From Spirochaetia bacterium (GTDB lineage: Bacteria; Spirochaetota; Spirochaetia; SZUA-6; Bin103), in the NCBI GenBank assembly GCA_965208575.1, contig CBDBOV010000005.1:128001-192000 (forward strand): DNA of 64,000 nt, in the 5' to 3' direction. The first letter of the stretch is position 1; each line of letters starts with the position of its first letter. The notes under the pieces are model-generated. The model was not told the origin of the DNA and did no database searches. It worked only from the letters and a program-made list of their open reading frames with translations. This document shows, one piece after another, positions 65-64,000 of the stretch. The position numbers and the translations under genes were made by a program.

Positions 65-216
65 GCCGTCATCACCTCATCCACTCCTGATGATCACAGC
101 ATATACCGATGGGAGGATAGCGTCACGCCCGTACAGGCGAACGAAGGCGAACGAGGCGAACCCACCATCCAGCCATGCGCGAGGTCTGCCGCCGCAGCGC
201 CCCGACCGGTAGCGCT

Positions 217-401
217 GGCCACACCGCCAGCCGCGGCGCGATCTCCATGTACTGGTGTCCCTCCCGGCTCAGCACGCCGCCCCAGCTCGGCACCGTGGTC
301 GGCAGCCCGAACCCCAGGAACAGCGCGTACGAGAGGTCGGTAACGAGATTGACCAGCACCACCACGGCGGCGAACACCAGGTTGACGCCCGACACGATCG
401 G
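217..401 (-). pseudogene. Fused fragments of OppC-like (217-320) and OppB-like (321-401) permease genes
   Basis: Matches segments of intact permeases at 7269-9172; the translation joins ...VTDLSYAL to FLGFGLPTTVPSWGG. Confidence 0.85.
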
Positions 402-618
402 CGCCTCGTTGCGGCTGCACACCGATGCCGGCCGCTACCGGCGCGACGTGCAGGTGACCAGCGGCTACCTGTCGAGCAACCCGCCCCGAGTCCACTTCGG
501 CTTGCCCGCCGGCGAGCGCCCGAGGCGGCTCACCATCCGCTGGCCGGACGGGTCCGAGGACGTGGTCGACGCGGCGCACGGCCTGGCGGCCGACACGCTG
601 CTGACCGTCACCCGGTAA
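397..618 (+). pseudogene. CRTAC1-family C-terminal (ASPIC/UnbV) fragment
   Basis: IGASLRLHTDAGRYRRDV...TLLTVTR* matches the end of 17018-18754; ATCGG microhomology with the oppB fragment. Confidence 0.85.
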
Positions 619-741
619 CACCCCACCGGGGGACCTGCAATCTTGCCTGCCCCCGAGGATACGAGGATGAGTCAGGCGCCAAGTTGGAGTGGGTTGCGCC
701 GCCGCTGCTCGACGTGCTGGCGAAGCGCGAGCCGTGGACGA

Positions 742-1686
742 TTATCCCCGATCCCTCACCAGCCGCAGAAAGTCCGCTTCGTCCCGGCACTCCAGCGCCG
801 CCCGCACCAGATCCTCGGCCGAGACGCCGTCAAGCTCGGCCAGCCGCCGTGGCAGCGCGGCCGACACCGGCACGCCCCGGGTCTCGAATACCTGCAACAC
901 CGCCGCGGTCAGCGCCTCCACCCGACCTTCCCGGCGCTCGGCGCGCAGCAACGGGTCGTCTTCCGGCCCCGTGCCTTCCGCCGCACCCAGCGTTCGCCCC
1001 ACCCGGCGCAACGCCGCGATGGTTGCGTCCGCCAGCTCGTCCTCGTTCAGCGCGATGTGAATCTCCGCCGCCGTCCAGCCCGGAAACGCCCGGCTACTCG
1101 ACGCCGTGCGATAGCCTTCGTCCGCCAACAGGTGAATCGTCAAGCCGGGACGCAGCCCCGCCGGACGGCTCGGCGACGCCGTGTCTGGCACCTCCACCCA
1201 CACTTCCGGAAACCCCCACGACTCGTAGAGTTCAAGCTTGCCGCGGCGTACGTCGGTGGTGTTGTCCACCTCCAGCACCACGTCCGGCAGCACGTCGCTG
1301 CCCACCTCGATGGCGGGACCCCAGGGCCGCGTCGCGCGCGGCCGCAGATACACCGTCTGGTCTGCCTCAAGGATACGCAGATAGGCGCCGTCCGCATCGC
1401 GCATCAGCAGGTCCGCGGCACCGAACGTCTCAATCGGCGAACCCCGCGTCTGGGCGATCAGCGTGAGCAGCGCCGCCAAGCGCTGCGGTGGCCGTTCGTG
1501 GTAGGTGCTGACCGGCTCGCACACCATGGCGACTTCCGTAGCGGCGTCCCAGTACTCGATGCGACCGTCGTAAGCGGCAATCTCATCACGCGATATACGC
1601 ACCGGCCGACAGCCGGGAAACTCCGGCCGCTCCGGCTCGCGCCCATCCGCCGGCCGCGGCACCGCGGTCACACTGTACTCAGCCAT
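742..1686 (-). CDS. Uma2-family PD-(D/E)XK endonuclease (type A)
   Basis: Motifs HERP..RL, EADQTVY, PDVVLEVD, KLELYESWGFPEVWV; start MAEYSV at 1686. Confidence 0.85.
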   Translation of the reverse strand: MAEYSVTAVPRPADGREPERPEFPGCRPVRISRDEIAAYDGRIEYWDAATEVAMVCEPVSTYHERPPQRLAALLTLIAQTRGSPIETFGAADLLMRDADGAYLRILEADQTVYLRPRATRPWGPAIEVGSDVLPDVVLEVDNTTDVRRGKLELYESWGFPEVWVEVPDTASPSRPAGLRPGLTIHLLADEGYRTASSSRAFPGWTAAEIHIALNEDELADATIAALRRVGRTLGAAEGTGPEDDPLLRAERREGRVEALTAAVLQVFETRGVPVSAALPRRLAELDGVSAEDLVRAALECRDEADFLRLVRDRG

Positions 1687-1848
1687 GGCGCCGATCTTAA
1701 CACATGGCGGCTCCTGCAATGCAGGCGCTATGACGCGCGGCACGCGGCTGAAATCCCTCGGCAGCTTGGTTGTATGAACGGGGCGATGCTTTGCGTTTGA
1801 CAACTACCGTCCGCCGCCGTGATTATCGGTGCCATGCATGGAGGCGCC

Positions 1849-2688
1849 ATGAAAGACTATAGAGACAAGGTAGCGGTGATCACCGGCGCAGGGCGCGGCA
1901 TCGGCCGAGGGATCGCCCTCCGTTGTGCCAAGGAGGGGATGAAGGTCGTCTTGGCCGGATTCGGGATGGAACCCCTCACCAGGACCGCCGCCGACCTGGA
2001 GGCGCTGGGGGCGGAGACGCTGATCGTCCAGACGGATGTATCCGAGGCAGCACAGGTGGAGAACCTGGCAGCAGCCACGATCGAAGCCTTTGGCCACGTC
2101 GACCTGCTGGTGAACAACGCCGGGGTCGCCCAGCCGGGCAAGACACTGGAGCTCACACTGGACGACTGGAACTGGGTAATGGGGGTCAATTTCTACGGAG
2201 TGCTTCATGGCCTGCGTGCATTCGTCCCCCGCATGATCGAACGGAAGCAACCCAGTCACGTGGTCAATGTCTCATCCCTTTCCGGCGTGCTCCCGGCGGG
2301 CGGGTCGTACGGGGTCTCGAAACATGCCGTACTGGTGCTGACCGAGTCGCTATATCGGGAGTTGGCCGAGTCGGCGCCCCACGTCAAGGTTTCGGTGCTC
2401 TGCCCGGGTTGGGTGGCGACCGAGTTTTACCGCGTGGATCAATCTCGTCCCGAACGTTTCAAAGGGGCGACGACCGAGGTCACCGACGAGTACCGGGAGA
2501 CTTGGCGCGGGTGGCTGACCGCAGGAATCACGACCGACCAGCTCGCCGGGATCCTGTTCGACGGCCTGGCGCACGACCAACTGTACATCGGCGTCCAGGG
2601 CTTCCGGGCAGCGGGGCAGGATGTCGGAGAGTCGATTATGGCCCGGGCTCAGAATATCGTCCAGGAGAAGAATCCACCCATCTCGTAA
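1849..2688 (+). CDS. SDR family NAD(P)-dependent oxidoreductase (copy 1)
   Basis: TGAGRGIG, NNAG and YGVSK motifs; GGAGG RBS before ATG 1849. Confidence 0.92.
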   Translation: MKDYRDKVAVITGAGRGIGRGIALRCAKEGMKVVLAGFGMEPLTRTAADLEALGAETLIVQTDVSEAAQVENLAAATIEAFGHVDLLVNNAGVAQPGKTLELTLDDWNWVMGVNFYGVLHGLRAFVPRMIERKQPSHVVNVSSLSGVLPAGGSYGVSKHAVLVLTESLYRELAESAPHVKVSVLCPGWVATEFYRVDQSRPERFKGATTEVTDEYRETWRGWLTAGITTDQLAGILFDGLAHDQLYIGVQGFRAAGQDVGESIMARAQNIVQEKNPPIS

Positions 2689-2759
2689 CCTGATCTATCC
2701 CGTTCTCGATGTCGGCCAAGTGCTTGATCAGCGTCCGTGCGCTGGGGACCAAGGTTGCT

Positions 2760-2871
2760 GACCGCCTGTGCGCCGTAGGCGCCGAGGCGGCCGCTGCCGC
2801 CGCGCAGGCGCAGGTCGAGCAGGTCGCGCACCGCGTCGCCGACCATGTTCAGGCAGTACACCACCACCGTC
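2760..2871 (-). pseudogene. OppC-like permease 3' fragment
   Basis: TVVVYCLNMVGDAVRDLLDLRLRGGSGRLGAYGAQAV, nearly identical to the intact copies. Confidence 0.85.
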
Positions 2872-3026
2872 CGGCGATTGTCGCCCTCCGCGACATCTTC
2901 ACGGTGGTACCGCTTGACGCGCAGATTCTCGATCAATCGATCGACTCTGCCCGTGGCGACTTCGAGGATGCGATCCAGCTTCACTCGGCGGTCAGGGTTG
3001 GAGCACGCTATCTGGTGACGAGGAAC
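2872..3026 (+). pseudogene. PIN-domain protein C-terminal fragment
   Basis: DFEDAIQLHSAV...YLVTRN is the typical PIN C-terminal signature; no start or N-terminus. Confidence 0.7.
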
Positions 3027-3177
3027 AGGGCGCGTTCTCACGCCACGGCGGCATCCCCCTGCGCGTGGTCGACCTGCCGGGACGCGCGGATCGCCGCCCT
3101 GATCGGCAGATCGGCAGCACCGCCTTCATGCGCAAGCAGGCCGGCTTCGCCTGTTCCGTGCCAGGTCGCGTCGCCGG

Positions 3178-4725
3178 TCAGGCGTCGGCGGTCTCGAAGG
3201 CGGTGATGTTGCGGGAGGCGCGGCTGAACTCGACGCCGATGAGATGGATGGGGGCGCCGGCCGCGCGGTACTTGTCGGCGTAGCGGCGCTCCTGCAACTG
3301 GGCGAGCGCGGAGCCGGGCGGCGCCATCTCCGCCACCTTGAACTCGAACAGGTAGACGTGGCCGGCGGTGCGCACCGCCATGTCCAGCCGCCCGTGGCTG
3401 CTCGACTCCTCCACGGCGATGTCGTAGCCGAGCGCGGCGAAGTAGGAGTAGAACACGCTGGCGTAGAAGCCTTCGTAGTCGGCGATGTCGTTGTTGGTGT
3501 ACCAGTGGTACGGGATGCTGGCGAAGAAGGCGTGGAACAGCACCTTCAGGCCGGCGCAGTCGTGCGCCTCCAGCAGGCTTGCAAGGCGGATGCTGTTGGT
3601 GGTCTGGTGCGCGGTGTCCCGCACCAGGTGGCGCAGCAGGACCCGGTTCAGGCTCTGCCGCACCTCCCGGTTGGGATAGCCGAGCCGGTACAGCGCCTCG
3701 CCGCCCAGCCGCTCTTCGGCGGTGATGGTCAGGTAGCCGGTCTGGAACAGCAGCGCCTCGGTGCCGATCTGATCCACGTCGAACGTGGACAACAACTCGG
3801 CGGTGCCGACCATGTCATCGAGCGACACCGTCGAGACGCGGCGTTCGAACAGCTTGTCGACCAGGAACGCCGGTGTACCAGTCTCGAACCAGTGATCGGC
3901 GAACTTGCGGCGGCGCAGGAACAGCAGCACGTCGTAGGGGTTGTACACCTTCTCCGTGCCCAGCCAGCTATAGCCGTTGTACCACTCGCGCACCCGCTCC
4001 CGGTCCACCCCGCCGAACTCGGGCGCGAACACCTCGTCCAGGTCGTCCTCCGTGTAGCCACAGATCGACGAGTACACCGGATCGAGCGTGATGTCGGTGA
4101 GGTTGTTCAAGTCCGAGAAAAGGCTCACCTTGGTGAATTTGCTCACTCCCGTCACGAACGTGAACCGTACGTGGGCGTCGCTCGACTTGATCATCCCATA
4201 GAAGCCGCGCAGGAAGTCGCGGTTGGCCACTGCCATCTCCGGGTCGGCGAGCGCATCGAGGATCGGCTTGTCGTACTCGTCAACCAACACCACGACCCGC
4301 TGCCCGGTCCGGCGATGCATGGTCTGCAGAAGTCGCCGTAAGCGTCCCGGCGCGCCCACCTCGCGCGCCGGAACACCCGCCGTCTCTTCCAGGTACTCCA
4401 GTTGGAGCGTCACGTCCTCGTTCAGACTCCCCGGTTCCTTGAAGCTGCCGCCGGCGAAGTCCAGCCGCACTACCGGGCAGCGTTCCGACCAGTTCCAGCG
4501 GTCGTGCACGTGCAGGCCCCTGAACAGTGGTTCGTTGCCTTCGAACAGTTCCTTCAGCGTGTCCAGGAACAGGCTCTTGCCGAACCGGCGGGGACGTGAC
4601 AGGAAGTAATGGGCGCCTTCGTCGAGCAGACGTTCGATGAAGTTCGTCTTGTCCACGTAGTAGCAGTCCTGCTCCCGCAGCTTGCGGAACGTCTGCATGC
4701 CGATCGGCAGTCTACGCCTGGTCAC
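3178..4725 (-). CDS. AAA-ATPase-like protein with C-terminal PD-(D/E)XK nuclease domain
   Basis: LPIGMQTF, YVDKT, RPRRFGKS (Walker A), LVDEYDKP (Walker B), GRLDM...LFEFK, ALAQL..RRY. Confidence 0.9.
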   Translation of the reverse strand: MTRRRLPIGMQTFRKLREQDCYYVDKTNFIERLLDEGAHYFLSRPRRFGKSLFLDTLKELFEGNEPLFRGLHVHDRWNWSERCPVVRLDFAGGSFKEPGSLNEDVTLQLEYLEETAGVPAREVGAPGRLRRLLQTMHRRTGQRVVVLVDEYDKPILDALADPEMAVANRDFLRGFYGMIKSSDAHVRFTFVTGVSKFTKVSLFSDLNNLTDITLDPVYSSICGYTEDDLDEVFAPEFGGVDRERVREWYNGYSWLGTEKVYNPYDVLLFLRRRKFADHWFETGTPAFLVDKLFERRVSTVSLDDMVGTAELLSTFDVDQIGTEALLFQTGYLTITAEERLGGEALYRLGYPNREVRQSLNRVLLRHLVRDTAHQTTNSIRLASLLEAHDCAGLKVLFHAFFASIPYHWYTNNDIADYEGFYASVFYSYFAALGYDIAVEESSSHGRLDMAVRTAGHVYLFEFKVAEMAPPGSALAQLQERRYADKYRAAGAPIHLIGVEFSRASRNITAFETADA

Positions 4726-4847
4726 CAGTTCATCCTACCCCACCGCGCGGCGGCACGAAACCGGGCGCATCGCCTCACGCCAATCCACACGAACGGTAAC
4801 CGTCGCCGACCGGCAGCGCTTGCAGCCGGGACGACGGGCTCCGTGGG

Positions 4848-5112
4848 TCACCTTCGTGCGGGAGGTGTAGTCGCCCCTCCTTTTCCGACCGCCTGGGCGC
4901 CGTAGGCGCCGAGGCGGCCGCTGCCGCCGCGCAGGCGCGGGTCGAGCAGGTCGCGCACCGCGTCGCCGACCATGTTCAGGCAGTACACCACCACCGTCAG
5001 ACACAGGCCCGGCCACACCGCCAGCCGCGGCGCGATCTCCATGTACTCGCGCCCCTCCCGGCTCAGCATGCCGCCCCAGCTCGGCACCGTGGTCGGCAAT
5101 CCGAACCCCAGG
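4848..5112 (-). pseudogene. OppC-like permease 3' fragment
   Basis: LGFGLPTTVPSWGG...GAQAVG... matches 7269-7530. Confidence 0.85.
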
Positions 5113-5136
5113 ACCACGGCCTTGAAGGATGGCACC

Positions 5137-6156
5137 ATGACCTCACCGATGTTCGACCTGGAGCACGTCGAGGTCTCGCCCAGCGGGCGCTACCAAGCAG
5201 CGCAACCCCGGCCCGCCCAGCCCGCCGAGCCGCCGGCGTTCCCGGGCTGCACGCCGGTGCACCTGCCGCGCACCGAGATCGACCGCTTCGAGGGGCGGCT
5301 CGAGTATTGGGATTCGGCCACCGAGACCGCCTGGATCAGCGAGCCCACCACTTCCTATCACGAACGCCCGTCGCGCCTGGTGACCCGCTTGGCCGAGATG
5401 GTTGGCCGGGTGCGCGGGTCGCCGATCGAGTCGTACGGCTCGATGGACCTGCTGCTGCGCGACCCCGACAGCGAGCCGCGGCGCATCATGCAGGCCGACG
5501 AGTCGGTGTACCTGCATCCGGCGCGCGCCAAGCTGCCGGGGGCCGCCATGGTGGTAGGCGAGGACGACTTTCCCGACGTGGTGCTGGAGGTGGATCACAC
5601 CACCGACGTGCACCGCGGCAAGCTCGCGCTGTACGAATCGTGGGGCTTCCCGGAAGTGTGGGTGGAGGTGCCGGACACTCCGTCGCCGAGCCGGCCGCAC
5701 CGGCGCCGCCCGGGACTGACCATTCATGTGCTCGAGCACGGCCGGTTCCGGGTTGCAACCGAGAGCCGTGCATTTCCCGGCTGGCGGGCCGAGGAGATTC
5801 ACTTGGCGCTGAACGAGCCGGTGCCGTCGGCGCAGACGAGCGCGGCGGTGGAACGGGTTGCAACGGCGCTCGGTGAGCGCGAAGGCACCGGCCCGGACGA
5901 CGACCCGCTGCTGCGCTCGCAACGGCGCCAGGGGTTCGAGCGCGGCCTGGCGGAAGGTCGCTTACGGATGGTCCGCCAGATTCTGCGGTCACGGGGCATT
6001 GCAGTGTCGGCGCGGTTCTCCGCCGCTGCGGAAGCGCTCGCCGCGGCGTCCGAGGAGGCGCTGCTGGCGGCGGCCAACCTGCAGTTGCTGACCGGCGGCC
6101 GCTACGGTGTTCGGCATCGGTGCCGGATGGGTCGAGCGCGAGTACCACGCCTATGA
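5137..6156 (+). CDS. Chimeric Uma2-family endonuclease (type B body; N-terminus from dhp-like gene, C-terminus from LLM gene)
   Basis: MTSPMFDLEHVEVS (dhp-like) in frame with a Uma2 body nearly identical to 60510-61405, then ANLQLLTGGRY (LLM). Confidence 0.6.
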   Translation: MTSPMFDLEHVEVSPSGRYQAAQPRPAQPAEPPAFPGCTPVHLPRTEIDRFEGRLEYWDSATETAWISEPTTSYHERPSRLVTRLAEMVGRVRGSPIESYGSMDLLLRDPDSEPRRIMQADESVYLHPARAKLPGAAMVVGEDDFPDVVLEVDHTTDVHRGKLALYESWGFPEVWVEVPDTPSPSRPHRRRPGLTIHVLEHGRFRVATESRAFPGWRAEEIHLALNEPVPSAQTSAAVERVATALGEREGTGPDDDPLLRSQRRQGFERGLAEGRLRMVRQILRSRGIAVSARFSAAAEALAAASEEALLAAANLQLLTGGRYGVRHRCRMGRARVPRL

Positions 6157-6375
6157 CTACGAGTTCCCGAAGCCGGCCGTGCGCATCGCCCAACTGGACG
6201 AGGCCGTGCAGATCGTCAGAAAGCTCTGGACCGAAGCGCCCGCCACCTTCCACGGCAGCTACTACCGGGTCACCGACGCCTACTGCGAACCGCGGCCGGA
6301 CCCCGCACCGCCACTGTTGATCGGCGGTGGCGGCGAACAACTGACCCTGCGGGTGGTGGCCAAGTACGCCGACTG
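6067..6375 (+). pseudogene. LLM-class oxidoreductase internal fragment
   Basis: Matches ~12402-12708. Confidence 0.85.
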
Positions 6376-6378
6376 CAC

Positions 6379-6457
6379 GTACTGGCGCCCCTCGCGGCTC
6401 ATCATGCCCCCAGCTCGGCACCGTGGTCGGCAGCCCGAACCCAAGGAAGCTCAGCGA
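6379..6457 (-). pseudogene. OppC-like permease internal fragment
   Basis: SLSFLGFGLPTTVPSWG; diverged copy. Confidence 0.75.
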
Positions 6458-6474
6458 TTCTCCCGGGCGGGCGT

Positions 6475-6837
6475 TCACCCTGTTCGAAGTCGGACGCGGC
6501 CTGCTTCGACAACTGCTAGTTTGCCCTCAATCATCGACAGTATTTCTTCCCGTCGGAGGAATGTCGTCAGCAACCTTAGTATGAAGGAAGTCGTTGCGTG
6601 ACGAGGTAGACGCAAGACCACGATGCCAGCATGACTTGACGGAGGATATCGCCGGACATCCCCGAACCCCGAATCGCCAGTGAGTAGGCATAACTCTTTC
6701 GACCGCGCATATTCCGCGATCTGCTCGTCACTGGAGGCCGCCATCCCTATGTCCCGAACGTCAACCGACTCGTGACCGCTAGCGGCGATCACACTACCTA
6801 CAGCGCGGGGTAGATCCGCGTCGATGATGAATCGCAA
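6475..6837 (-). CDS. DUF5615 PIN-like toxin
   Basis: MRFIIDADLP...ASSDEQI..YA...LLTGDSGFG...GIVVLR; directly downstream of DUF433. Confidence 0.85.
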   Translation of the reverse strand: MRFIIDADLPRAVGSVIAASGHESVDVRDIGMAASSDEQIAEYARSKELCLLTGDSGFGDVRRYPPSSHAGIVVLRLPRHATTSFILRLLTTFLRREEILSMIEGKLAVVEAGRVRLRTG

Positions 6838-6842
6838 ACCGA

Positions 6843-7067
6843 TCAGGTTGCAGGTAGAGGAAAAACCTCTTCTGCTTCGACGAGTTCCTCGGCGTACTCA
6901 AGAGCGGCCCGTACATCTGCGTCTACAACGTCATATTCTTCGCAAATCTCTTTTCGCGTTGCCCCACCTGCAAGGCTTCCAATAATTCGATGCACAGGCA
7001 CCCGAGTCCCTCGCACCACCGGCTTCCCATGACGGATAGAGGGGTCGATCATTATTCGTTCATTCAT
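6843..7067 (-). CDS. DUF433 antitoxin
   Basis: MNERIMIDPSIRHGKPVVRGTRVPV...DVRAALEYA; GGAGGTGA RBS. Confidence 0.9.
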   Translation of the reverse strand: MNERIMIDPSIRHGKPVVRGTRVPVHRIIGSLAGGATRKEICEEYDVVDADVRAALEYAEELVEAEEVFPLPAT

Positions 7068-7268
7068 CCTGTCACCTCCATGCGAGTGAGACGTTGCAAC
7101 TCTCACAACAGCGGAAACCCATACGCCACGCTGGGAGGCTCTGCTTGTATCTGCTTGTACCAGCGTAACACCGCAGGGACTCTCCGCGAGTGATTCGGCT
7201 GCCATACTACGCTTCAGGCGGCACCTCAGCAAGCGCGCCGGCCCTCCCTGGACTGACCGCTCGGTGGT

Positions 7269-8189
7269 TCACTTCCGCGCGGGCCGTGCGGTCGAATCGG
7301 CTTGTCCGACCGCCTGCGCGCCGTAGGCGCCGAGGCGGCCGCTGCCGCCGCGCAGGCGCGGGTCGAGCAGGTCGCGCACCGCGTCGCCGACCATGTTCAG
7401 GCAGTACACCACCACCGTCAGACACAGGCCCGGCCACACCGCCAGCCGCGGCGCGATCTCCATGTACTCGCGCCCCTCCCGGCTCAGCATGCCGCCCCAG
7501 CTCGGCACAGTCGTGGGCAGGCCGAACCCCAGAAAGCTCAAGCTGGCCTCGCTGATCACCACCGCGCCGATGTTGATGCTGTAGATCACGATCAGCACCG
7601 GCGCGATGTTGGGCAGCAGGTGGTGCAAGAGGGTCCGCCAGCGCGAGCTGCCCACCGCCCGCGCCGCCTCGAAGTAGACCTGCTCCCTGGCGCCGATCAC
7701 CGCGCCCCTTACCACCCGCGAGCCGCCGATGCCGCCCAGCACCCCCAGCACCACGATGATCTGCAGCACCCCCCGGCCGACCACCGACATCACCGTCAGC
7801 AGGATCAGCAGGCCGGGAATCGACATCCAGGCATCGACCAGCCGCTGCACCGTCGGGTCGAGCCGGCCGCCGATGAAGCCGGACGCGCCGCCCACGACCA
7901 GCGCCACCAGCACGTTGACGGCGGTCGCGGCCAGGCCGACGCCGAGGGTGAGGCGGGCGCCGTAGATCAGCCGGCTGGCGAAGTCGCGGCCCAACTGGTC
8001 GGTGCCCAGCGGGTAGCGCGCCGAGGAGCCCTGCAGCCGGTCCATCAGGAACACCTCGTTGGGACCGAAAGGGGCCAGCACGTCGGCCAACAGCGCCACC
8101 AGGATCAACAACAGCAGCACGATCCCGAGCACCACCGCCAACGGCTTCTCCCGGCGCAGCCGGACAAAGAAATCGGCGAACGCGCCCAT
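7269..8189 (-). CDS. Peptide/nickel ABC transporter permease, OppC/DppC-like (copy 1)
   Basis: LGTDQLGRD, EAARAVG loop, HLLPN, LSFLGFG..PSWG. Confidence 0.9.
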   Translation of the reverse strand: MGAFADFFVRLRREKPLAVVLGIVLLLLILVALLADVLAPFGPNEVFLMDRLQGSSARYPLGTDQLGRDFASRLIYGARLTLGVGLAATAVNVLVALVVGGASGFIGGRLDPTVQRLVDAWMSIPGLLILLTVMSVVGRGVLQIIVVLGVLGGIGGSRVVRGAVIGAREQVYFEAARAVGSSRWRTLLHHLLPNIAPVLIVIYSINIGAVVISEASLSFLGFGLPTTVPSWGGMLSREGREYMEIAPRLAVWPGLCLTVVVYCLNMVGDAVRDLLDPRLRGGSGRLGAYGAQAVGQADSTARPARK

Positions 8190-8200
8190 CGGCGCCTTCC

Positions 8201-54824: not shown

Positions 54825-54841
54825 ACCAGCCCCGCCCATAA

Positions 54842-55799: not shown

Positions 55800-55806
55800 C
55801 GGTGCC

Positions 55807-56772: not shown

Positions 56773-56870
56773 GCACTACGCTCCATCATCGGCTGGGGGG
56801 AGGACCGAGCGCTGGGAAGGGGGGCCGGCCACGTCGCGGCCCCGCCCCCCAGCTGCAAGTGCCGTGCGCC

Positions 56871-58640
56871 CTACGGCTTCAGACTGCTATCGAACCACAG
56901 GCGCGCGAAAGCCAGATATTGGCCGGACTTCGTCAAAGTCGACTCGCCGTTGTATCCCGCGACCCACGGCTGGGTCACCGAGAATTCTGGCCCCACCGCC
57001 CCGGCCAGCTGCCAGAACTGCTCGATCGAGTACATCTCCAGCTCGCGGAGCGCCGCGTTTTGTTCGTCAAGCGTGGTCGCGGCTTGGTACTCTTCGAACT
57101 TGGCCCTGTACCACTCGTCGTCGACCTCGGAGGTGTTCCATGATGTCGAGAGGAATTTCCCCAAAATAGCCGCTGCGGAGCCCTTGTAAGCCCCTTCCGC
57201 CGTGATGAGCTCATAGTCTCCCTGTGTTCTTGCGGCCACGTGCTCAGCCAGTGGCAGAATGACGACCTCTGCCTTGACGCCGATGGCGTCCCAATAACTG
57301 ATCAGGAGCTCGGTGTAGTTCAGATCGTAGCGCGGTTGGTGTACGATCTCGGTCTCGAATCTGACGCCGTCGGCGCCGCGCGGATACCCCGCCTCGTCGA
57401 GCAGCGCCTCGGCACCGGCTGGGTCATACTCGAACGCCTTCCTGACATCTGCCGGCCAATCTTCGAACGGGGTCGCGACGGCAGTATTGAAACGGCTTAT
57501 CTGCCCCTGGGGGATGGCATCCGCCAAGCCTTTATAGTATCCTTGGTCGATCTCGTCGAGGTTGAGGGCCATCTGCATCGCCTTGCGTACCCGGATGTCG
57601 TCAAAGGGCTTGACCTTAATGTTCATGCCGACATCCTGGTCCGACCGTAGCGCAAACGGATAGACCTTCAGCTCAGGGTTGGTGCGCTGCAGGCTCTCTA
57701 ACTGGTCGACACCCCGCAACGTGGTAGTGCCGCCTGCTGCACCTATGTAATCGAGCTGGCCGCTGCGCAGCGCTGAGACGTACGTCGCCACCTCGGGCAT
57801 GACCAGCGCGCGTATCTGGTCGAAATAGGGGAGCCGGTTCTCCGGGAACTTCTCGTCGAAGCGCCAGTAGTCGGGATTCTTGTCATAGGTAACGGAGCTG
57901 CCCTTGGTCCAGTCGGTGAGAGTATAGGGCCCGGTGCCGACCAGATCCCGCCAATCACTCGCGTTCCCCTTTGCCCGGATGACCTCGGGGGCGTAGATGA
58001 TGTTCATGCCCCCTTGGATGATCGCCACAAGAGCACCGCTGGTTGGCGCTGGCAGCTTGATCACCACCGTCGAGCTGTCGGTGGCGGTTACCGATTCGAG
58101 CTCGACGCCGGTGTACTCGCCGGCATTAATAAACTCGCTGCGTTCGGTGTAGCCGCTGCCGATGCCAAACAACCGGTGGAAGTTGAACTCGACATCCTCG
58201 GCGGTCAGCGCGCGACCGTTCATCGGCGCCTTGTCCTGCCAGCGAACGCCCTGGCGGATGTTGAGGACGTAGGTAAGAGGGTCGGGCTGCGACCAGCTCT
58301 CGGCCAGGAGCCCGATGGTGTGCGTCGGCGGGAGGGCCACCGCAAAGTCGTGCTCGTCTCTTGGCGTTGACCAGTCCTGGATCGTCAGATTCTCGAGGAC
58401 GAGATTGTAGATGATGGATCCCCAACCACCGGCGAGCACGGCGTCGATGTCCCCCGGCTCTTCCTTGAGTGCATAGGTGAACGTGCCGCCGTACTCGGGC
58501 GCACTGATCATCTCGCCGGTGCTGGGGTCGAGCACCATCTCCTTCTCGACCGCGGCCGCCTCCTCACCGGCGGGGGCGGCGAACGTAACGGTAGCCGCCA
58601 GCGAGAACGCCAGCGTCAGCACAATGAATTTGGGAGTCAT
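56871..58640 (-). CDS. OppA/DppA-like substrate-binding protein (copy 2)
   Basis: More diverged paralogue of 9295-11040. Confidence 0.9.
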   Translation of the reverse strand: MTPKFIVLTLAFSLAATVTFAAPAGEEAAAVEKEMVLDPSTGEMISAPEYGGTFTYALKEEPGDIDAVLAGGWGSIIYNLVLENLTIQDWSTPRDEHDFAVALPPTHTIGLLAESWSQPDPLTYVLNIRQGVRWQDKAPMNGRALTAEDVEFNFHRLFGIGSGYTERSEFINAGEYTGVELESVTATDSSTVVIKLPAPTSGALVAIIQGGMNIIYAPEVIRAKGNASDWRDLVGTGPYTLTDWTKGSSVTYDKNPDYWRFDEKFPENRLPYFDQIRALVMPEVATYVSALRSGQLDYIGAAGGTTTLRGVDQLESLQRTNPELKVYPFALRSDQDVGMNIKVKPFDDIRVRKAMQMALNLDEIDQGYYKGLADAIPQGQISRFNTAVATPFEDWPADVRKAFEYDPAGAEALLDEAGYPRGADGVRFETEIVHQPRYDLNYTELLISYWDAIGVKAEVVILPLAEHVAARTQGDYELITAEGAYKGSAAAILGKFLSTSWNTSEVDDEWYRAKFEEYQAATTLDEQNAALRELEMYSIEQFWQLAGAVGPEFSVTQPWVAGYNGESTLTKSGQYLAFARLWFDSSLKP

Positions 58641-58910
58641 TGCGTACTCCTCCTCGTTGTCGGGATCGGGACCGCGTCCCGTTGCCCGTGTTCTTGGGCC
58701 GAAGACTTCGGCCTTCTCGCATGGTCGTGGTAGTCGTCGCACCCGAAGCGGGAGACAGCGCCGCGAGCGCCGGTTTCCGCGAGCGTGGTGCGATGGGTGT
58801 GGATGGCGAAGGGAGCCGCTACGTCGTCAGCGGTGCAGATGGCGACAGAGTGGCGGATGTGGCTCGGCGAGCGTAGAGAGCGGTCAGTTACCGGGTGCTT
58901 GGTTTGTTGT

Positions 58911-58985
58911 GGAGCAGGCCGGAGCAGGCCGGAGCAGGCCGGAGCAGGCCGGAGCAGGCCGGAGCAGGCCGGAGCAGGCCGGAGC
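58911..58985. repeat. Tandem repeat (GGAGCAGGCC) x7.5 in the oppA leader
   Basis: Direct count; the paralogous leader has GGAGCAGGAC x2.5 at 11228-11252. Confidence 0.95.
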
Positions 58986-59160
58986 GCTAGCGTTCGCGGC
59001 TAACGGGTGGCTGCGGTGGGCTGTGTGATCGCGCTTCATCCGCGTACCAAGCCGCCATTCTACCACGCGCCCGGCACCCGTCAAGCACGCCGAATCGGTC
59101 GAATCTGTCGGCTGGAAAGGTGCGACCGGGTCGCGCTACCATGCAGATCGGAGTCGGCGC

Positions 59161-60105
59161 ATGGAACAGAAGCCCAGTCCGGTGCTGCGTACCGCGATAG
59201 GAAACTATGGCCATACCGCGGCCTTGAAGGATGGCACCATCACCTCCCCGATGTTCGACCTGGAGCACGTTGAGGTCTCCCCCGTGCCGATGATATTCCG
59301 CCGCATGGTGCGGGGGCTCGAGTTCGATGTCGCGGAGATGGCGCTGGCGACCTGTTTCTGTGCCCGCGCCCACGGCAAGCGCTTTACCGGAATCCCCATC
59401 TTCCTGACCCGCGCCTTCTATCACGGCGAGTTGCTGTGCCACCGGCGCAGCGGTATCCGGGCGCCGAAGGACCTCGAAGGCCGCAAGGTGGGCGTACGCA
59501 GCTACACGTTTACCCCCGGCGTCTGGACGCGCGGCATCCTGGCCGCCGAATACGGCGTCGACCTGGACGCGGTCACCTGGGTTCTGTCGGGAGACGAACA
59601 CGTGCAGGAGTACGTCGCGCCCGCCAACGTGGTGTCGTCGCCCAACAACAACCTCGCGACGATGCTGCTCGCCGGCGAGATCGACGCCGCCATCGCGCCC
59701 GGCCCGGTCGACTCGCCTGACATCCAGCCGCTGTTCCCGGACGCCCGGCAGGCCGACGACGCCTGGCACCGCAGGACCGGGATCTATCCGATCAGCCACC
59801 TGCTGGTGGTGAAGGACGCGGCGCTGGCGTCGCACCCCGGTCTCGCAACCGAGCTGTTCCGCCTGTTCAGCGAGGCCAGGTCGCAGTACCTGCCGCGCCT
59901 GCGCTCCGGCGCCGCCGACGACGCCGGCGATCGGTCGCTGCGGAAGATGGCGCAGACGGTCGGCGGCGACCCCCTGCCCTACGGCTTCGAGAGTTCGCGC
60001 AAGACTCTGGAGACCTTCATACGCTACAACGTCGACCAGGGCGTGATACCGCAGGCGGTCGCCCCGGAGGACCTGTTCGTGCCGGAGACCCTGGCCCTGG
60101 TCTGA
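59161..60105 (+). CDS. 4,5-dihydroxyphthalate decarboxylase-like / ABC substrate-binding protein (dhp-like)
   Basis: G.Y.HT.ALKDG, FRRMVR.LEFDVAEM, IPIF..R.F.H, PKDL.G..VG, GIYPI.H, DP.PYG. Confidence 0.8.
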   Translation: MEQKPSPVLRTAIGNYGHTAALKDGTITSPMFDLEHVEVSPVPMIFRRMVRGLEFDVAEMALATCFCARAHGKRFTGIPIFLTRAFYHGELLCHRRSGIRAPKDLEGRKVGVRSYTFTPGVWTRGILAAEYGVDLDAVTWVLSGDEHVQEYVAPANVVSSPNNNLATMLLAGEIDAAIAPGPVDSPDIQPLFPDARQADDAWHRRTGIYPISHLLVVKDAALASHPGLATELFRLFSEARSQYLPRLRSGAADDAGDRSLRKMAQTVGGDPLPYGFESSRKTLETFIRYNVDQGVIPQAVAPEDLFVPETLALV

Positions 60106-60116
60106 CCACCCGAACC

Positions 60117-60414
60117 GAGCGGCGGCCCGCCGCTCTCGTTGGTCGCATCGGTCACGTAGTGATGCAGTTCGTACACTCGAAACAGTGCCTGGAGTCCACG
60201 AGTGGACTTGCTTCTGCGCCAGTCCGAGCTGATCACAATGCCCGCGCCGAAGTCCTTGCACAGCGAGCGCAGCCGTTCGACCGCTTCGCTGTCCCAGTCA
60301 AAGCACACCGCCCCAAGGTCGTACTTGTCCATGCCCAGGTAGATCTCATCGGCCAATCTGTCGGCCAGCGAACAGCACGATCGGCGCCTCGTTGCGGCTG
60401 GACACCGATGCCGG
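60117..60414. pseudogene. HAD internal fragment (-) plus short CRTAC1 fragment (+)
   Basis: Matches 41962-42216 and 18533-18567. Confidence 0.8.
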
Positions 60415-60489
60415 GCGTCGGCGTGCGCGCCCCGGCTGATCTGGAACGTCCGGTTTGCATGCCCGCGCGAGATGGGCTACGCTGGCGTC

Positions 60490-61473
60490 ATGGCCAGCAC
60501 CAAAGCACCGCCCAGCGGGCGCTACCAAGCAGCGCAACCCCGGCCCGCCCAGCCCGCCGAGCCGCCGGCGTTCCCGGGCTGCACGCCGGTGCACCTGCCG
60601 CGCACCGAGATCGAACGCTTCGAGGGGCGGCTCGAATATTGGGATTCGGCCACCGAGACCGCCTGGATCAGCGAGCCCACCACTTCCTATCACGAACGCC
60701 CGTCGCGCCTGGTGACCCGCTTGGCCGAGATGGTCGGCCGGGTGCGCGGGTCGCCGATCGAGTCGTACGGCTCGATGGACCTGCTGCTGCGCGACCCCGA
60801 AGGCGAGCCGCGGCGCATCATGCAGGCCGACGAGTCGGTGTACCTGCATCCGGCGCAGGCCAGGCTGCCGGGGGCCGCCATGGTGGTAGGCGAGGACGAC
60901 TTTCCCGACGTGGTGCTGGAGGTGGATCACACCACCGACGTGCACCGCGGCAAGCTCGCGCTGTACGAATCGTGGGGCTTCCCGGAAGTGTGGGTGGAGG
61001 TGCCGGACACTCCGTCGCCGAGCCGGCCGCACCGGCGCCGCCCGGGACTGACCATTCATGTGCTCGAGCACGGCCGGTTCCGGGTTGCAACCGAGAGCCG
61101 TGCATTTCCCGGCTGGCGGGCCGAGGAGATTCACTTGGCGCTGAACGAGCCGGTGCCGTCGGCGCAGACGAGCGCGGCGGTGGAACGGGTTGCAACGGCG
61201 CTCGGTGAGCGCGAAGGCACCGGCCCGGACGACGACCCGCTGCTGCGCTCGCAACGGCGCCAGGGGTTCGAGCGCGGCCTGGCGGAAGGTCGCTTCCGGA
61301 TGGTCCGCCAGATTCTGCGGTCACGGGGCATTGCAGTGTCGGCGGGGTTCTCCGCCGCTGCGGAAGCGCTCGCCGCGGCGTCCGAGGAGGCGCTGCTGGC
61401 GGCGGCGCTTGGCTGCGCGGATGAGGCGGAGTTCCTTGCCGCGCTCCGGCGCTCGCGCCACCCGGGCGGCTGA
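60490..61473 (+). CDS. Uma2-family endonuclease (type B, intact)
   Basis: HERP, QADESVY, PDVVLEVDHTT, KLALYESWGFPEVWV. Confidence 0.87.
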   Translation: MASTKAPPSGRYQAAQPRPAQPAEPPAFPGCTPVHLPRTEIERFEGRLEYWDSATETAWISEPTTSYHERPSRLVTRLAEMVGRVRGSPIESYGSMDLLLRDPEGEPRRIMQADESVYLHPAQARLPGAAMVVGEDDFPDVVLEVDHTTDVHRGKLALYESWGFPEVWVEVPDTPSPSRPHRRRPGLTIHVLEHGRFRVATESRAFPGWRAEEIHLALNEPVPSAQTSAAVERVATALGEREGTGPDDDPLLRSQRRQGFERGLAEGRFRMVRQILRSRGIAVSAGFSAAAEALAAASEEALLAAALGCADEAEFLAALRRSRHPGG

Positions 61474-61653
61474 CCTCCTAGCGCCCCGAAACCGCGCGTT
61501 CGTTGGGCCCTTCGATCAGCAACGCCTATTGGTCATGCGCGCCGGGTCGTAAAGGTCGCGGGTGTCGCTCAACTATCTGCACCACCTGCTGCTGTCGGCG
61601 CCGTGGCATGCAGCCTTGTGGGTGCACCGGCGCGCGTGGTTTCATGTGCGGCG

Positions 61654-63381
61654 ATGTCTCGAGGTTGGAGGGGGATGGCGTGCCTGGCGGCTCTGCTGTG
61701 TGCCGGCCCGCTCGGCGCGGCTCCCGGCGTCGCAGTTGTCCCGGTCAGCACCGAGACGAGTTGCGCGGGAGCGTTCGTGGCGCACCCGCTGCCGCACTCG
61801 GTGCAGCCGATGCCGAACCTGCCGATGCCGTTCGACAGCAACGGCTCGGGGGTCGCGATCGCCGACCTCGATGGCGACGGCTGGCTGGACGTGCTGCTCG
61901 GCGGGCTGCACGGCCCGGCGACGGTGCTCTGGAACCGCGGCGACCCGGGCGGTCCGGCGTTCGATGCCGTGGCGCTCGAACTGGTCGGGGCGCGCGCGGT
62001 GGCCATCGTGGACGTGGACGGCGACGGACACCAGGACATCGTCGCCACCCGGCCCGACGAACGTCCGCGGTGGCTGCGGGGAAGCGGCGGACGCACCTTC
62101 CGGATCGTGGACGACGAACGGTTCGTCGCCCGCTATCCCATCTACACGATGGCGTGGGACGATCTCGATGGCGACACCGACCTCGACCTGGTCGGCGCCA
62201 CCTACGACGCCGAGTTGGAGCGATACGAGGCGATGGAGGCATACCGGAACTTCGTGACGACCAACGTTTCCACCGCCCGCACCCGGCAGCGGGGGGTGTG
62301 GTACTACGAGAACCTCGGGCCGCGCGACCGGCGCAGCGCCTTCGAGCCGGGTGAGTTCCAGTTCCTGGCATGGCCCCTCGCCGCCGGCGCGATGGCACTG
62401 CCCATCGTGCTGACCGACGTCGACGGCGACGCGCTCAGCGACATCGTCGTGGGCAACGACTACGACGTCCCGGACAACGTATTCCTCCGTACCCCCGATC
62501 GGGTGCGCCCGCACCGGTCGTGGTGGCGCCCCGGCAGCCCGTTCCCGGTGACCACCCGCAACACCATGGCATTCGCCACCGGCGACGTGGACAACGACGG
62601 CCGCATCGAACTGTTCGCGGCGGACATGAGCCCGTACCGCGCGGGTGCGGACATCGACGAGGCGTGGGGGCCGCTGCTGCAACCGGGCGGCGCGGCGACC
62701 CCGGTGGGCGACGGCGTACAGGCCGCGGCCAACGTGCTGCAGACCCGGCAGGAGGACGGCTCCTACCTGGACACCGCCGGCCGCGCCGGGGTGGCCGCCA
62801 CCGGCTGGAGCTGGTCGGCGCAGTTCGGGGACCTGGACAACGACGGCGACCTGGACCTGTACATCGTCAACGGCATGGTCGGCGATCCGTTCCGGAAACT
62901 GGAGGACGCCGAGCTGGTCGAGGAGAACCAGGCGCTGCGCAACCTGGGCGGGGAGCGCTTCGTGGCCGCGCCGGAGTGGCGGCTGGGCGCCACCGAGAGC
63001 GGGCGCGGCATGGCGCTCGGCGACCTCGACCGCGACGGCGACCTGGACATCGTGGTCAACAACTACCGGGCGCCGTCGCTGCTGTTCGAGAACCGCCTGT
63101 GCGGCGGGGCGAGCGTGCAGGTGGACCTGGTCTGGTCCGGCACGGACAACCGGTTCGCAATCGGCGCCTCGTTGCGGCTGGACACCGATGCCGGCCGCTA
63201 CCGGCGCGACGTGGAGGTGACCAGCGGCTACCTGTCGAGCAACCCGCCCCGCGTCCACTTCGGCTTGCCTGCCGGCGAGCGCCCGCAGCGGCTCACCGTC
63301 CGCTGGCCGGACGGCGCCGAGGACGTGGTGGGCGCTACGGACGGCTTGACGGCCGACACGCTGTTGACCGTCACCCGGTAG
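61654..63381 (+). CDS. CRTAC1-family protein (copy 2)
   Basis: Paralogue of 17018-18754. Confidence 0.9.
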   Translation: MSRGWRGMACLAALLCAGPLGAAPGVAVVPVSTETSCAGAFVAHPLPHSVQPMPNLPMPFDSNGSGVAIADLDGDGWLDVLLGGLHGPATVLWNRGDPGGPAFDAVALELVGARAVAIVDVDGDGHQDIVATRPDERPRWLRGSGGRTFRIVDDERFVARYPIYTMAWDDLDGDTDLDLVGATYDAELERYEAMEAYRNFVTTNVSTARTRQRGVWYYENLGPRDRRSAFEPGEFQFLAWPLAAGAMALPIVLTDVDGDALSDIVVGNDYDVPDNVFLRTPDRVRPHRSWWRPGSPFPVTTRNTMAFATGDVDNDGRIELFAADMSPYRAGADIDEAWGPLLQPGGAATPVGDGVQAAANVLQTRQEDGSYLDTAGRAGVAATGWSWSAQFGDLDNDGDLDLYIVNGMVGDPFRKLEDAELVEENQALRNLGGERFVAAPEWRLGATESGRGMALGDLDRDGDLDIVVNNYRAPSLLFENRLCGGASVQVDLVWSGTDNRFAIGASLRLDTDAGRYRRDVEVTSGYLSSNPPRVHFGLPAGERPQRLTVRWPDGAEDVVGATDGLTADTLLTVTR

Positions 63382-63386
63382 CACTT

Positions 63387-63673
63387 TAGGTGCTGACCGG
63401 CTCGCACACCATGGCGACTTCCGTAGCGGCGTCCCAGTACTCGATGCGACCGTCGTAAGCGGTAATCTCATCACGCGATATACGCACCGGCCGACAGCCG
63501 GGAAACTCCGGCCGCTCCGGCTCGCGCCGATCCACCGGCCGCGGCACCGCGGTGACACTGTACTCAGCCATGGCGCCGATCTTAACACATGGCGGCTCCT
63601 GCAATGCAGGCGCTGCACGGCGAGAGACCATCATTGATCAGGAGGTGATGCCGCGCCTGTCGCTCCCGCGCTG
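63387..63673. pseudogene. Uma2-A 5' fragment (-) and LLM 3' tip (+)
   Basis: Matches 1502-1729 and 13019-13054. Confidence 0.8.
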
Positions 63674-63769
63674 ACCGGATCTTTTGCCGCCACCTGGACT
63701 CCTATAATGCCAGTAAATGACAGGTTCAGCACTGAGCAGCGCGCCCTGATCATCCGGTGCCGACGGGCC

Positions 63770-64000
63770 TCAAACCGACGTCACGGCGGTGGCACCCAGC
63801 CGTCCCCCGCCGCCTCTGAGCCGCGGGTCGAGCAGGTCCCTCACCGCATCGCCAAACATGTTCAAACTGTAAACGGTTACCGTCAGGCAAAGACCAGGCC
63901 AGGCAGCCAGGTGTGGTGCTTCCTCCATGAATCGACGCCCTTCGCCGCTGAGCATACCTCCCCAGCTGGGAACCTCGATGGGCAGGCCGTATCCGAGGAA
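63770..64000 (-). CDS. Third, more distant OppC-like permease (3' part; runs off window)
   Basis: FLGYGLP..PSWGGMLS...GDAVRDLLDPRLRG. Confidence 0.8.
   Translation of the reverse strand, partial: FLGYGLPIEVPSWGGMLSGEGRRFMEEAPHLAAWPGLCLTVTVYSLNMFGDAVRDLLDPRLRGGGGRLGATAVTSV

Follow-up and report, generated by a model that had tools for sequence, protein, structure and literature searches.

The 64-kb window analysed here, i.e. the whole stretch of 64,000 nucleotides, is likely the middle of a tandem paralog cluster (a 'gene accordion') shaped by unequal recombination, gene conversion and deletions through end joining or slippage, with the resulting debris retained in an IS-rich genome. The cluster spans ~86 kb (window −6.6 kb to +79.7 kb), and its mosaic extends past the window by ~6.6 kb on the upstream and 15.7 kb on the downstream side, both of which escaped the original prediction. 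Its scaffold comprises five opp-type ABC importer operons on one strand together with adjacent genes (SBP-like, CRTAC1-like, Uma2-like, LLM and SDR genes as well as toxin–antitoxin modules), the core being three sister opp operons. Altogether, the mosaic amounts to ~58 kb net, holds no fewer than 44 junctions and is found again in congeners. Outside the low-GC island and the IS stack, 28,321 of 34,299 bases (82.6%) have another copy within the locus at a minimum of 84% identity, bearing out the earlier claim of a mosaic in which some ten genes recur, intact or in pieces, on the strand of the parent gene. The host is probably a sponge-associated bacterium, and its genome is metagenome-assembled (95% complete, 5.75% contamination).

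Pfam confirmed the gene identities, with the Uma2-like genes scoring 24.6–25.6 bits, i.e. below the 27-bit cut-off, and the 'dhp-like' gene representing a weak NMT1/phosphonate-binding-type SBP. The features of the window are as follows.

211–653, plus strand: shard chain of an oppC 3′ piece (211–320), oppB (318–401) and a CRTAC1-like 3′ end (395–653), overlapping by 3 and 7 bp.
742–1803, minus strand: Uma2-like gene A (353 aa; 25.1 bits for PF05685, under the 27-bit cut-off), a natural convergent neighbour of the CRTAC1-like gene, as in the relative G006.
1772–2749, plus strand: SDR copy 1 (ORF 1819–2688) and the first 39 bp of LLM (2711–2749); 93% identical to 14978–15955.
2755–2875, plus strand: oppC 3′ shard, 98% identical to 7308–7419.
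3178–4725, minus strand: AAA-ATPase_like and PDDEXK_9 gene, with a 137-bp shard at 13135–13271.
4838–6458, plus strand: shard chain of oppC (4838–5113), SBP-like 'dhp' (5113–5181), Uma2-like B (5177–6074; 99.8% identical to the copy at +75625), LLM (6068–6375) and oppC (6373–6458), with successive overlaps of 1, 5, 7 and 3 bp.
6475–7232, minus strand: toxin–antitoxin pair, DUF5615/PIN_10 (6475–6837) and DUF433 (6843–7232).
7259–11541, minus strand: opp operon type I with oppC, oppB (8201–9172) and oppA (9295–11541); conserved leader (11180–11369) with 2.6 copies of a 10-bp repeat (11227–11252).
11377–12058: two SBP-like fragments, then a HicB-like block duplicated at 39580–40182 (HicB-like match at 11804–11995, minus strand).
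12066–13058, plus strand: LLM copy 1 (ORF 12113–13054), 96.4% identical to LLM copy 2.
13079–13366, plus strand: three small shards, CRTAC1-like (41 bp), AAA (137 bp) and SBP-like (53–57 bp).
13779–14978, minus strand: multicopy element with copies on five contigs (90–93% identity) and a deleted copy at 42512–42830; its ORF (13891–15009) has no Pfam match.
14978–16910, plus strand: SDR copy 2 (15025–15894) and LLM copy 2 (15980–16906).
16936–19293, plus strand: 45-bp oppC shard, CRTAC1-like copy A (17000–18754) and truncated Uma2-like B (18780–19293).
19470–38317: low-GC island interrupting the mosaic and lying outside the repeat set, with a P4-type integrase (19470–20657), an IS3-like element, group II introns, an Mrr-like nuclease and an SBP_bac_1 gene.
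39106–43873, plus strand: degenerate stretch in which pieces of oppC, SBP-like, CRTAC1-like and Uma2-A genes occur with the HicB block, HAD_SAK_2 (41713–42420, minus strand), an IS remnant, and SDR, LLM and Uma2-B shards.
43874–53775: mobile elements nested in one another within an AbiEi-like antitoxin gene that they interrupt; outermost, a Mu-transposase/IstB-type transposon (43874–44802 and 50887–53775) contains an IS3-like element (~44.8–47.0 kb), which in turn contains a 3.8-kb Transposase_29 and rve element (47001–50796).
53776–59101, minus strand: AbiEii toxin gene (54066–54845) and opp operon type II with oppC (54867–55799), oppB (55807–56772) and oppA (56871–58742); its leader carries 7.5 copies of a 10-bp repeat (58911–58985).
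59161–63674, plus strand: intact SBP-like gene (59161–60105), HAD shard (60117–60371), CRTAC1-like shard (60376–60417), Uma2-like B (60425–61480), CRTAC1-like copy B (61603–63381), Uma2-A fragment (63387–63614) and LLM 3′ shard (63639–63674).
63707–64000, minus strand: start of the next opp paralog, more diverged and running past the window; 98% identical to contig C84 of G006.

The repeat architecture, which can be observed directly, is almost exclusively one-directional. Self-blastn of the window returned 98 repeat pairs other than self-matches; 91 of them are direct and seven inverted. Three of the inverted pairs join old Uma2-A and Uma2-B paralogs (69–71% identity), one is an IS terminal repeat, one a partial transposon copy (38318–39120 versus 53775–52973) and one lies inside the island; the last is a lone inverted shard of 69 bp (13631–13699 versus 41683–41618). 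That fragments keep the strand of their parent gene thus holds near-perfectly. The copy numbers originally counted by eye also largely agree with self-blastn and the piece table: there are seven pieces of the SBP-like 'dhp' gene, six of CRTAC1-like, four of Uma2-B, three of Uma2-A, two each of AAA and HAD, and two minus-strand HicB-like matches (11804–11995 and 39928–40119). Five LLM pieces had been listed and five to six are present, while a 50-bp shard comes in addition to the two SDR copies. Two counts did not stand, namely nine oppC pieces, of which there are 10 owing to a further shard at 16936–16980, and two of Rpn, as none of the 14 Transposase_31 matches of the genome falls within the window. 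Likewise, the proposed loosely cycling gene order lacks statistical support, with six increases and six decreases relative to copy B in a hand count. Shard order being no more colinear than chance, 'whole units with internal deletions' are not demonstrated, and a patchwork built by many small events fits equally well.

The junctions, too, were read directly. Compared with the fetched loci of relatives, and among the matches listed (G006 being fragmented), 44 are private to the studied genome. Overlaps occur at 27 of these (median 5 bp, range 0–18 bp), with 22 of the 27 overlapping by at least 3 bp, as compared with 6.3% of simulated blunt joins (binomial p ~3e-22); the remaining 17 carry 1–25 unmatched bases. 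Microhomology was therefore rightly noted, although the 1–7 bp initially given was too short. No consensus site emerged either, in keeping with the first reading, since the maximal column information (0.17–0.23 bits) stays within the range of random sets (95th percentile, 0.25). Both junctions quoted at the time were recovered (401/395 with the 7-bp overlap CGATCGG and 6074/6068 with CGGCGGC), as was the diverged composite junction (395–776 versus 40662–40997, 82% identity by self-blastn). Contigs of run X1 agree to the base with two of the composite junctions (63385|T|63387 and 63614|24 nt|63639), and a 935-bp contig spans 6413–7347 with 0 differences. The genome further encodes Ku (151.8 bits), two LigD prim-pol domains and RecA.

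Apart from these shards, the sister opp scaffold and its homogenised permeases, neither of which featured in the first reading, add a second side to the locus. In the MAG assembly, copies B and C form a near-identical 9.6-kb pair (94.5% overall), yet identity is unevenly distributed: 53771–56470 of copy B matches copy C, 15.2 kb downstream, at 99.3–100% over 2.7 kb, and 58862–61560 at 97–100%, whereas the oppA genes share 77–89%. In trees, oppCB of copies B and C are sisters, while oppA falls into three deep types, each common to other species. Permeases and flanks being homogenised around binding-protein genes that are ~80% identical and shared across species, homologous recombination and gene conversion appear to matter as much as illegitimate joining. 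The fragment trees show copies partly clustering by genome: three Uma2-B copies of G001 fall into a clade of their own and so do three LLM copies of G000, as expected of in-situ duplication, and some paralogs are older than the G000/G006 split (dhp 40996 type versus 59427 type). As judged from sequence, the intact duplicates are constrained, with a dN/dS of 0.24–0.52 for LLM, SDR, oppB, CRTAC1 (copy A versus B) and oppA; the values for CRTAC1 B versus C (guessed coordinates, one internal stop) and for Uma2-B versus 5177 (0.97, mismatched ORF ends) are unreliable.

We infer the following order of events. First, long direct tracts between sister units (100% identity over 2.7 kb and ~99% over a further 2.7 kb) would permit RecA-dependent unequal crossing-over and gene conversion, by which units of 10–15 kb may be gained or lost and permease genes and flanks kept alike, the three old oppA types persisting despite recombination. 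Illegitimate joining at 0–18 bp of microhomology would then trim surplus copies to short gene shards, possibly through end joining by Ku/LigD, slippage during replication or template switching. Since events between direct repeats, be they duplications, deletions or conversions, leave the orientation of DNA unchanged, each piece would keep its parent's strand, and the debris would persist because the genome, rich in IS copies and harbouring further fields of this kind, tolerates junk. Toxin–antitoxin modules at unit borders may also restrict the reach of deletions. Besides the shard order, the origin of the oppC pieces counts against this scheme: all 10 stem from about the last 400 bp of the gene, an excess that simple random deletion would not predict.

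The bacterial duplication–amplification–deletion cycle consists of RecA-dependent unequal crossing-over and RecA-independent microhomology joins. The locus resembles it in direct orientation, in site-less microhomology or blunt junctions and in the loss of copies by recombination between them. The cycle is the subject of a review (PMC13732712), and spontaneous rearrangements are described in PMC3411829. Unlike laboratory amplifications, which are transient and clean, its copies have diverged by 1–20% and its debris has persisted across speciation. A second parallel is provided by the lpl/csa1 tandem paralog clusters of Staphylococcus aureus, likewise termed 'gene accordions' (Tsuru and Kobayashi 2008, PMC2568036; Belikova et al. 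2020, PMC7360770). Both systems have paralog units in the same orientation and genes facing the host environment; in both, recombination sites are provided by conserved tracts that separate the variable parts, and close relatives differ in copy number and arrangement. However, the S. aureus units are single lipoprotein genes, whereas those described here are multigene (10–15 kb) transporter operons with neighbours, retain dozens of small dead microhomology-joined shards and are seen to vary between species, expansion and contraction within a population being a candidate property here.

Homologous loci of three congeners (G001, G005 and G006) show the same strand-preserving shard pattern with differing junction sets. 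Each gene occupies a single strand in G001 (oppC 6/6, dhp 4/4, Uma2-B 4/4), G005 (oppC 7/7, dhp 4/4) and C84 of G006 (oppC 5/5, AAA 3/3), and repeat pairs of at least 82% identity are direct or inverted at 62/2, 48/3 and 12/0, respectively. The G007 locus is compact and single-unit, with only two repeat pairs. In G006, the closest relative (97–98% identity in backbone segments), the arrangement is much shorter and the junctions differ, even though the composite junctions 2873–5113, 43396–43874 (contiguous) and 395–1169 are also present. The DUF5615/DUF433 pair has three different left partners in three species, joined within 6423–6458.

Among the alternatives, replicative template switching (MMBIR/FoSTeS-like), in which a polymerase hopping between nearby templates writes each shard chain in one event instead of deletions following one another, fares best but is still unlikely. 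It would account well for chains of 45–300-bp pieces with 1–7 bp microhomologies (211–653, 4838–6458 and 43022–43552), derived from the same locus and not colinear with a unit. Template switching commonly yields inverted as well as direct segments, and only one inverted shard was found. Moreover, shard–parent identity ranges from 84 to 99.8%, suggesting different shard ages, and 43396–43874 is common to G006 when the neighbouring junctions of that chain are not.

Very little probability attaches to an assembly artefact, in which the metagenome assembler would have linked haplotypes from coexisting strains or from sister species one behind the other and so created false direct duplications. The contamination of the MAG, the 100% tracts within copies B and C and the use of short Logan contigs, which do not reach across the long-range order, would all be compatible with it. 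Yet the pattern in three congeners cannot be the artefact of one assembly, the direct-only arrangement recurring in three further species that were assembled independently, one into a single 7.0-Mb contig, and haplotype stitching cannot produce microhomology-joined shards of 40–300 bp, far shorter than long reads. Further arguing against it are the 9.9-kb nested transposon insertion in copy B that copy C lacks, the different old oppA types of B and C with orthologues in other species, and the composite junctions common to G006.

Equally improbable is additive capture of single fragments by an integrase-less cassette mechanism, such as Campbell-type circle integration via oppC homology or site-specific insertion. 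While oppC 3′ pieces do recur between others like the duplicated targets of single-crossover integration, and differing cargo (toxin–antitoxin modules, the AAA-PDDEXK gene) directly follows the oppC stop in different units, the ends of the oppC shards are heterogeneous (starts 7259–7631, ends 7361–7675 of the parent), a junction motif is absent and the inserted pieces are for the most part internal portions of genes without a function to carry. Copies also cluster with local parents rather than foreign alleles, and an Rfam search gave nothing above threshold except two group II introns. Like integron cassette arrays, the locus is one-directional and gathers many small units in one place, but it has no IntI beside the array, no attC-like boundary and no other integron-like feature, its units are gene fragments instead of complete cassettes, and the sole integrase in the window, of P4 type, belongs to the edge of the island that interrupts the array. 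Of the mechanism first put forward, tandem amplification followed by microhomology deletion is supported by kept orientation, site-less junctions with microhomology or filler, partial clustering by genome and the differing junction sets of congeners. Neither additive integration nor the idea of a 'recombination-driven cassette array' finds such support, the pieces being arbitrary fragments lacking a boundary motif. Local duplication, copy-correction and deletion around sister opp operons explain the locus best, and better than a new cassette system.

The idea that the products of PD-(D/E)XK genes bordering the units (Uma2-like, AAA-PDDEXK_9) cut locally and thereby start duplication and deletion is similarly remote: a phage homing endonuclease is described as amplifying neighbouring genes (PMC13096335), Uma2-like B adjoins oppC or CRTAC1-like ends here and in other loci and genomes, and windows with these genes hold slightly more repeat pairs (Mann–Whitney p 0.016–0.033), but this association is weak, and confounded by the genes being repeats themselves, the Uma2 assignment lies below the Pfam cut-off with nuclease activity a candidate property, and neither Uma2-B nor oppC occurs in the top hot spot (C1:128001) or in several further ones. 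The C1:128001 field has one AAA-type gene (C1:126930–128711), which starts just outside that window.

With 79 local repeat pairs against a median of 5.5, the window ranks second among 194 genome windows. Comparable direct-only shard fields, which the first reading had missed, occur at other places in the same genome.

The best-supported reading of this locus is a tandem paralog cluster, which homologous exchange between direct repeats would expand, contract and correct and which illegitimate joining would afterwards trim. The window covers C5:128001-192000 of a metagenome-assembled genome of 6.5 Mb in six contigs (G000; 67% GC, 95% complete, 5.75% contamination). Sponge metagenome runs of several studies contain some 30% of the words sampled from window 1-7300, and contigs from three sponge metagenome runs match the window at 1-3% differences. 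The mosaic overruns the window on both sides, starting at about -6.6 kb and ending near +79.7 kb (negative and plus-signed coordinates lie outside the window, in the same numbering); it has no fewer than 44 junctions and comes to about 58 kb net. The stretch 53771-63385 has a second copy at +68960 to +78502, and the repeated units all share one orientation:

7259-19300, direct orientation, repeated unit
43549-63385, direct orientation, repeated unit
+68645 to +79546, direct orientation, repeated unit

Apart from Rpn copies, which were not borne out (the window holds no Transposase_31 match), Pfam confirms the gene set:

oppC, oppB and oppA, confirmed
SBP-like gene (originally called 'dhp'), weak match of NMT1/phosphonate type
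CRTAC1-like gene, FG-GAP/UnbV_ASPIC
LLM, luciferase-like monooxygenase
SDR
AAA-ATPase_like plus PDDEXK_9 gene
HAD_SAK_2 gene
HicB-like gene
two Uma2-like types, just below the Pfam cut-off

The Uma2-like matches span positions 12-135 of the 172 in profile PF05685 and score 25.1, 24.6 and 25.6 bits (E about 1e-5) against a gathering cut-off of 27 bits. At the thresholds used, 13 of the 50 scanned ORFs of the window gave no Pfam match. Among these 13 are the plus-strand ORFs 11513-12052 and 39669-40361, the real gene there being HicB-like and on the opposite strand. Annotation of such a locus calls for caution, as many of its 'ORFs' are chimeric shards, i.e. short broken gene pieces. The six frames of the whole window contain no LSGGQ-type ABC signature, so the opp operons here encode one binding protein and two permeases but no ATPase of their own; tblastn counts 192 oppC-like loci genome-wide.

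Compared with itself, the window yields 98 repeat pairs, 91 direct and seven inverted, and once the low-GC island and the IS stack are set aside, 82.6% of the remaining 34,299 bases are duplicated elsewhere in the locus at 84% identity or more. The inverted pairs are as follows:

three matches between the old paralogs Uma2-A and Uma2-B, at about 70% identity
IS ends, a partial transposon copy, one pair within the island and a single 69-bp shard

The sole inverted shard of the mosaic is a segment of about 90 bp, 13631-13724, which matches 41618-41708 in direct and inverted orientation; as its partner is matched both ways, the segment is internally palindromic. The expectation that every fragment keeps the strand of its parent gene held almost perfectly in the window, and the homologous loci of congeners show the same pattern, with 62 direct and two inverted pairs in G001 (on one 7.0-Mb contig), 48 and three in G005, and 12 and none on contig C84 of G006. 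In each genome compared, all fragments of a gene lie on one strand. Unit number and arrangement differ among these relatives: the locus of G007 is compact and essentially a single unit, and those of G001, G005 and G006 are expanded, with other junctions. Strand preservation can be attributed to homologous exchange between direct repeats and illegitimate joining themselves.

When all 194 64-kb windows of the genome were ranked by local repeat pairs of 82-99% identity, this one came second: it has 79, the median being 5.5. Repeat pairs are mostly direct genome-wide (2040 versus 283 inverted). The mosaic is unusual in its scale, in the persistence of its debris and in its recurrence across species.

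The evidence for exchange between units comes from the opp unit that includes 53771-63385 (copy B) and its near-identical downstream repeat (copy C). Over 2.7 kb, 53771-56470, comprising AbiEii, oppC and oppB, the two are about 100% identical, and over a further 2.7 kb, comprising the leader, the SBP-like gene and Uma2-B, about 99% identical, yet their oppA genes are only 77-89% identical. The oppA tree resolves three deep types, and all three have orthologues in other species:

oppA type I: G000, G006, G005, G001
oppA type II: G000, G005 (98%)
oppA type III: G000, G001

In their own tree, oppCB copies B and C are sisters. Together with the sharing of oppA types across species, this indicates that the sister operons are old and that homogenisation is acting on their permeases and flanks. 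It is unusual for homogenised permeases to stand so cleanly apart from binding-protein types that are divergent yet conserved. Other gene trees place duplications within lineages and also before the split of G000 and G006, and the dN/dS of intact duplicates is 0.24-0.52 (two unreliable rows set aside). The type II identity between G000 and G005 suggests either recent interspecies exchange or unusually strong constraint. The type II stretch compared is 56900-58560 of the window; for oppCB and the CRTAC1-like gene next to it, identity to G005 is 90-93%.

A 10-bp repeat in the operon leaders is present in 7.5 versus 2.6 copies, and the leaders of B and C differ by 50 bases in length. The repeat lies at 58911-58985, 11227-11252 and about -1407 to -1372, and its run is longer in the G001 leader. 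Among sister operons, oppA leaders are 90-96% identical while repeat copy number varies; one leader pair, -1506 to -1265 and +73977 to +74208, is 90% identical, with coding regions only 65-72% alike.

Joining was studied at junctions from a greedy tiling in which the locus was compared with itself and with the loci of relatives; 44 of them had no spanning match elsewhere. At 27 of these the flanking pieces overlap by 0-18 bp (median 5), the overlap being 3 bp or more in 22, versus 6.3% for simulated blunt joins; the other 17 have 1-25 unmatched bases. The aligned flanks of the 44 junctions share no motif or consensus. Ku (C5:579317), a LigD prim-pol domain (twice) and RecA (451 bits) are encoded. 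The junctions, together with the Ku/LigD genes, have the features of end-joining (Ku/LigD) scars, features that do not tell which pathway acted. The shards derive from at least ten genes, the commonest being the oppC 3′ end, from the homogenised part; the over-representation of these pieces is a weak point of the reading. Since shard order relative to copy B shows six increases and six decreases, the idea of units with internal deletions is not demonstrated. Some shard chains could each be the product of one template-switching event.

Composite junctions common to G006 are found at 2873-5113, 395-1169 and 43396-43874; most junctions of window 1-7300 were not seen among the matches listed for the whole genomes of five congeners. 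The 24 runs all exist as short Logan contigs, which neither prove long-range order nor reveal population variants, and stretches without cover carry no information. Two composite junctions of the window recur without a single difference in contigs of run X1, possibly the source sample. Against window 1-20000, no piece from runs X1, X5, X7 and X8 spans more than about 1 kb, and most of the joints listed for these four runs either rest on sides 21-30 letters long or stem from another copy of the locus.

On its left, the toxin-antitoxin module DUF433/PIN (6475-7232) is joined to a different partner in each of three species, always within 6423-6458, just past the toxin's stop codon, a pattern that would fit deletions unable to remove the addiction module. 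A contribution of border nucleases to rearrangement is weakly suggested by slightly more repeat pairs in windows with AAA-PDDEXK, Uma2-B or CRTAC1 genes (p 0.016-0.033), but this test is confounded, and oppC count correlates best with repeat pairs (rho 0.40), which is trivial.

Far more speculative, and in our judgement improbable, is the idea that the locus is a recombination nursery favoured by selection and serving nutrient uptake in a host-associated bacterium. Blocks of homogenised permease, leader and flank sequence would then serve as portable homology by which old, cross-species binding-protein alleles are re-copied and reshuffled and operon copy number changes, slippage-prone 10-bp leader repeats would dial expression, and addiction modules or border nucleases would set where breaks and deletions begin and end. 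If so, the shards would not be neutral junk but by-products of a semi-programmed switch of copy number and specificity.

No feature that defines an integron or a silent-cassette system was found. Silent-cassette gene conversion of the pilS/vls type is rejected because the shards come from many genes rather than from the variable part of one expressed gene; within the window there are no shards of the variable oppA, the only oppA pieces lying just upstream (-530 to -356 and -518 to -393). An integron is dismissed, as there is no IntI-type integrase with attI at the array head, the 44 junctions show no attC-like consensus and the mosaic has one short inverted repeat.

The tandem paralog cluster, in turn, shows the marks of a gene accordion: direct units, long similar tracts between B and C with RecA encoded, and variation among relatives. 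The closest described systems are the Staphylococcus aureus lpl/csa1 tandem paralog clusters, or 'gene accordions' (PMC2568036, PMC7360770); the general bacterial duplication-amplification-loss cycle is also close. The locus is a further case of this known kind and does not indicate a new recombination system. Titles and listings of literature on sponge Chloroflexi duplication, bacterial microhomology and tandem duplication, Uma2 and the genomic accordion yielded no description of the locus or lineage. Its value is that of an unusually detailed, multi-species record of transporter-family expansion and pruning in a host-associated bacterium, with duplication, gene conversion sparing the specificity subunit and illegitimate deletion in one locus; uncultivated, IS-rich genomes can evidently keep duplication debris that free-living bacteria normally purge.

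The IS stack (43874-53775) is a nested insertion into the AbiEi-like antitoxin gene of one unit. Its 3.8-kb element at 47001-50796, which encodes Transposase_29 and an rve-domain protein and occurs about 28 times over all six contigs (99.9% identity or more), sits in an IS3-like element, itself within a Mu-transposase/IstB-type transposon. An inverted 803-bp partial copy (99.3%) of this transposon's right end (52973-53775) lies at 38318-39120, on the border between island and mosaic.

The island (about 19.4-38.3 kb) carries at its edge the only tyrosine recombinase of the window (19470-20657), of P4 type with Arm-DNA-bind_3 and Phage_int_M domains; the window has no tRNA genes that could be its attachment site. 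A second, diverged integrase 5′ region within the island (19266-19680 versus 31565-31935, 69% identity) suggests two islands integrated in tandem. An Rfam search returned two group II intron matches, both in the island, and nothing else: 25097-26971, with a reverse transcriptase ORF at 25177-26517 and four other genome copies at 99.9%, and 32831-32975, a D1-D4 match only.

Further shard fields involve other genes, e.g. C1:120-186 kb, with 193 direct and 13 inverted pairs. The strongest of the genome, C1:140000-186000, repeats a tyrosine-recombinase gene segment of about 850 bp some seven times, directly and at 92-95% identity, every 3-9 kb among many direct shards of 40-300 bp, and may reflect tandem accretion of integrative elements; an AAA-ATPase_like plus PDDEXK_9 gene lies at C1:126930-128711.
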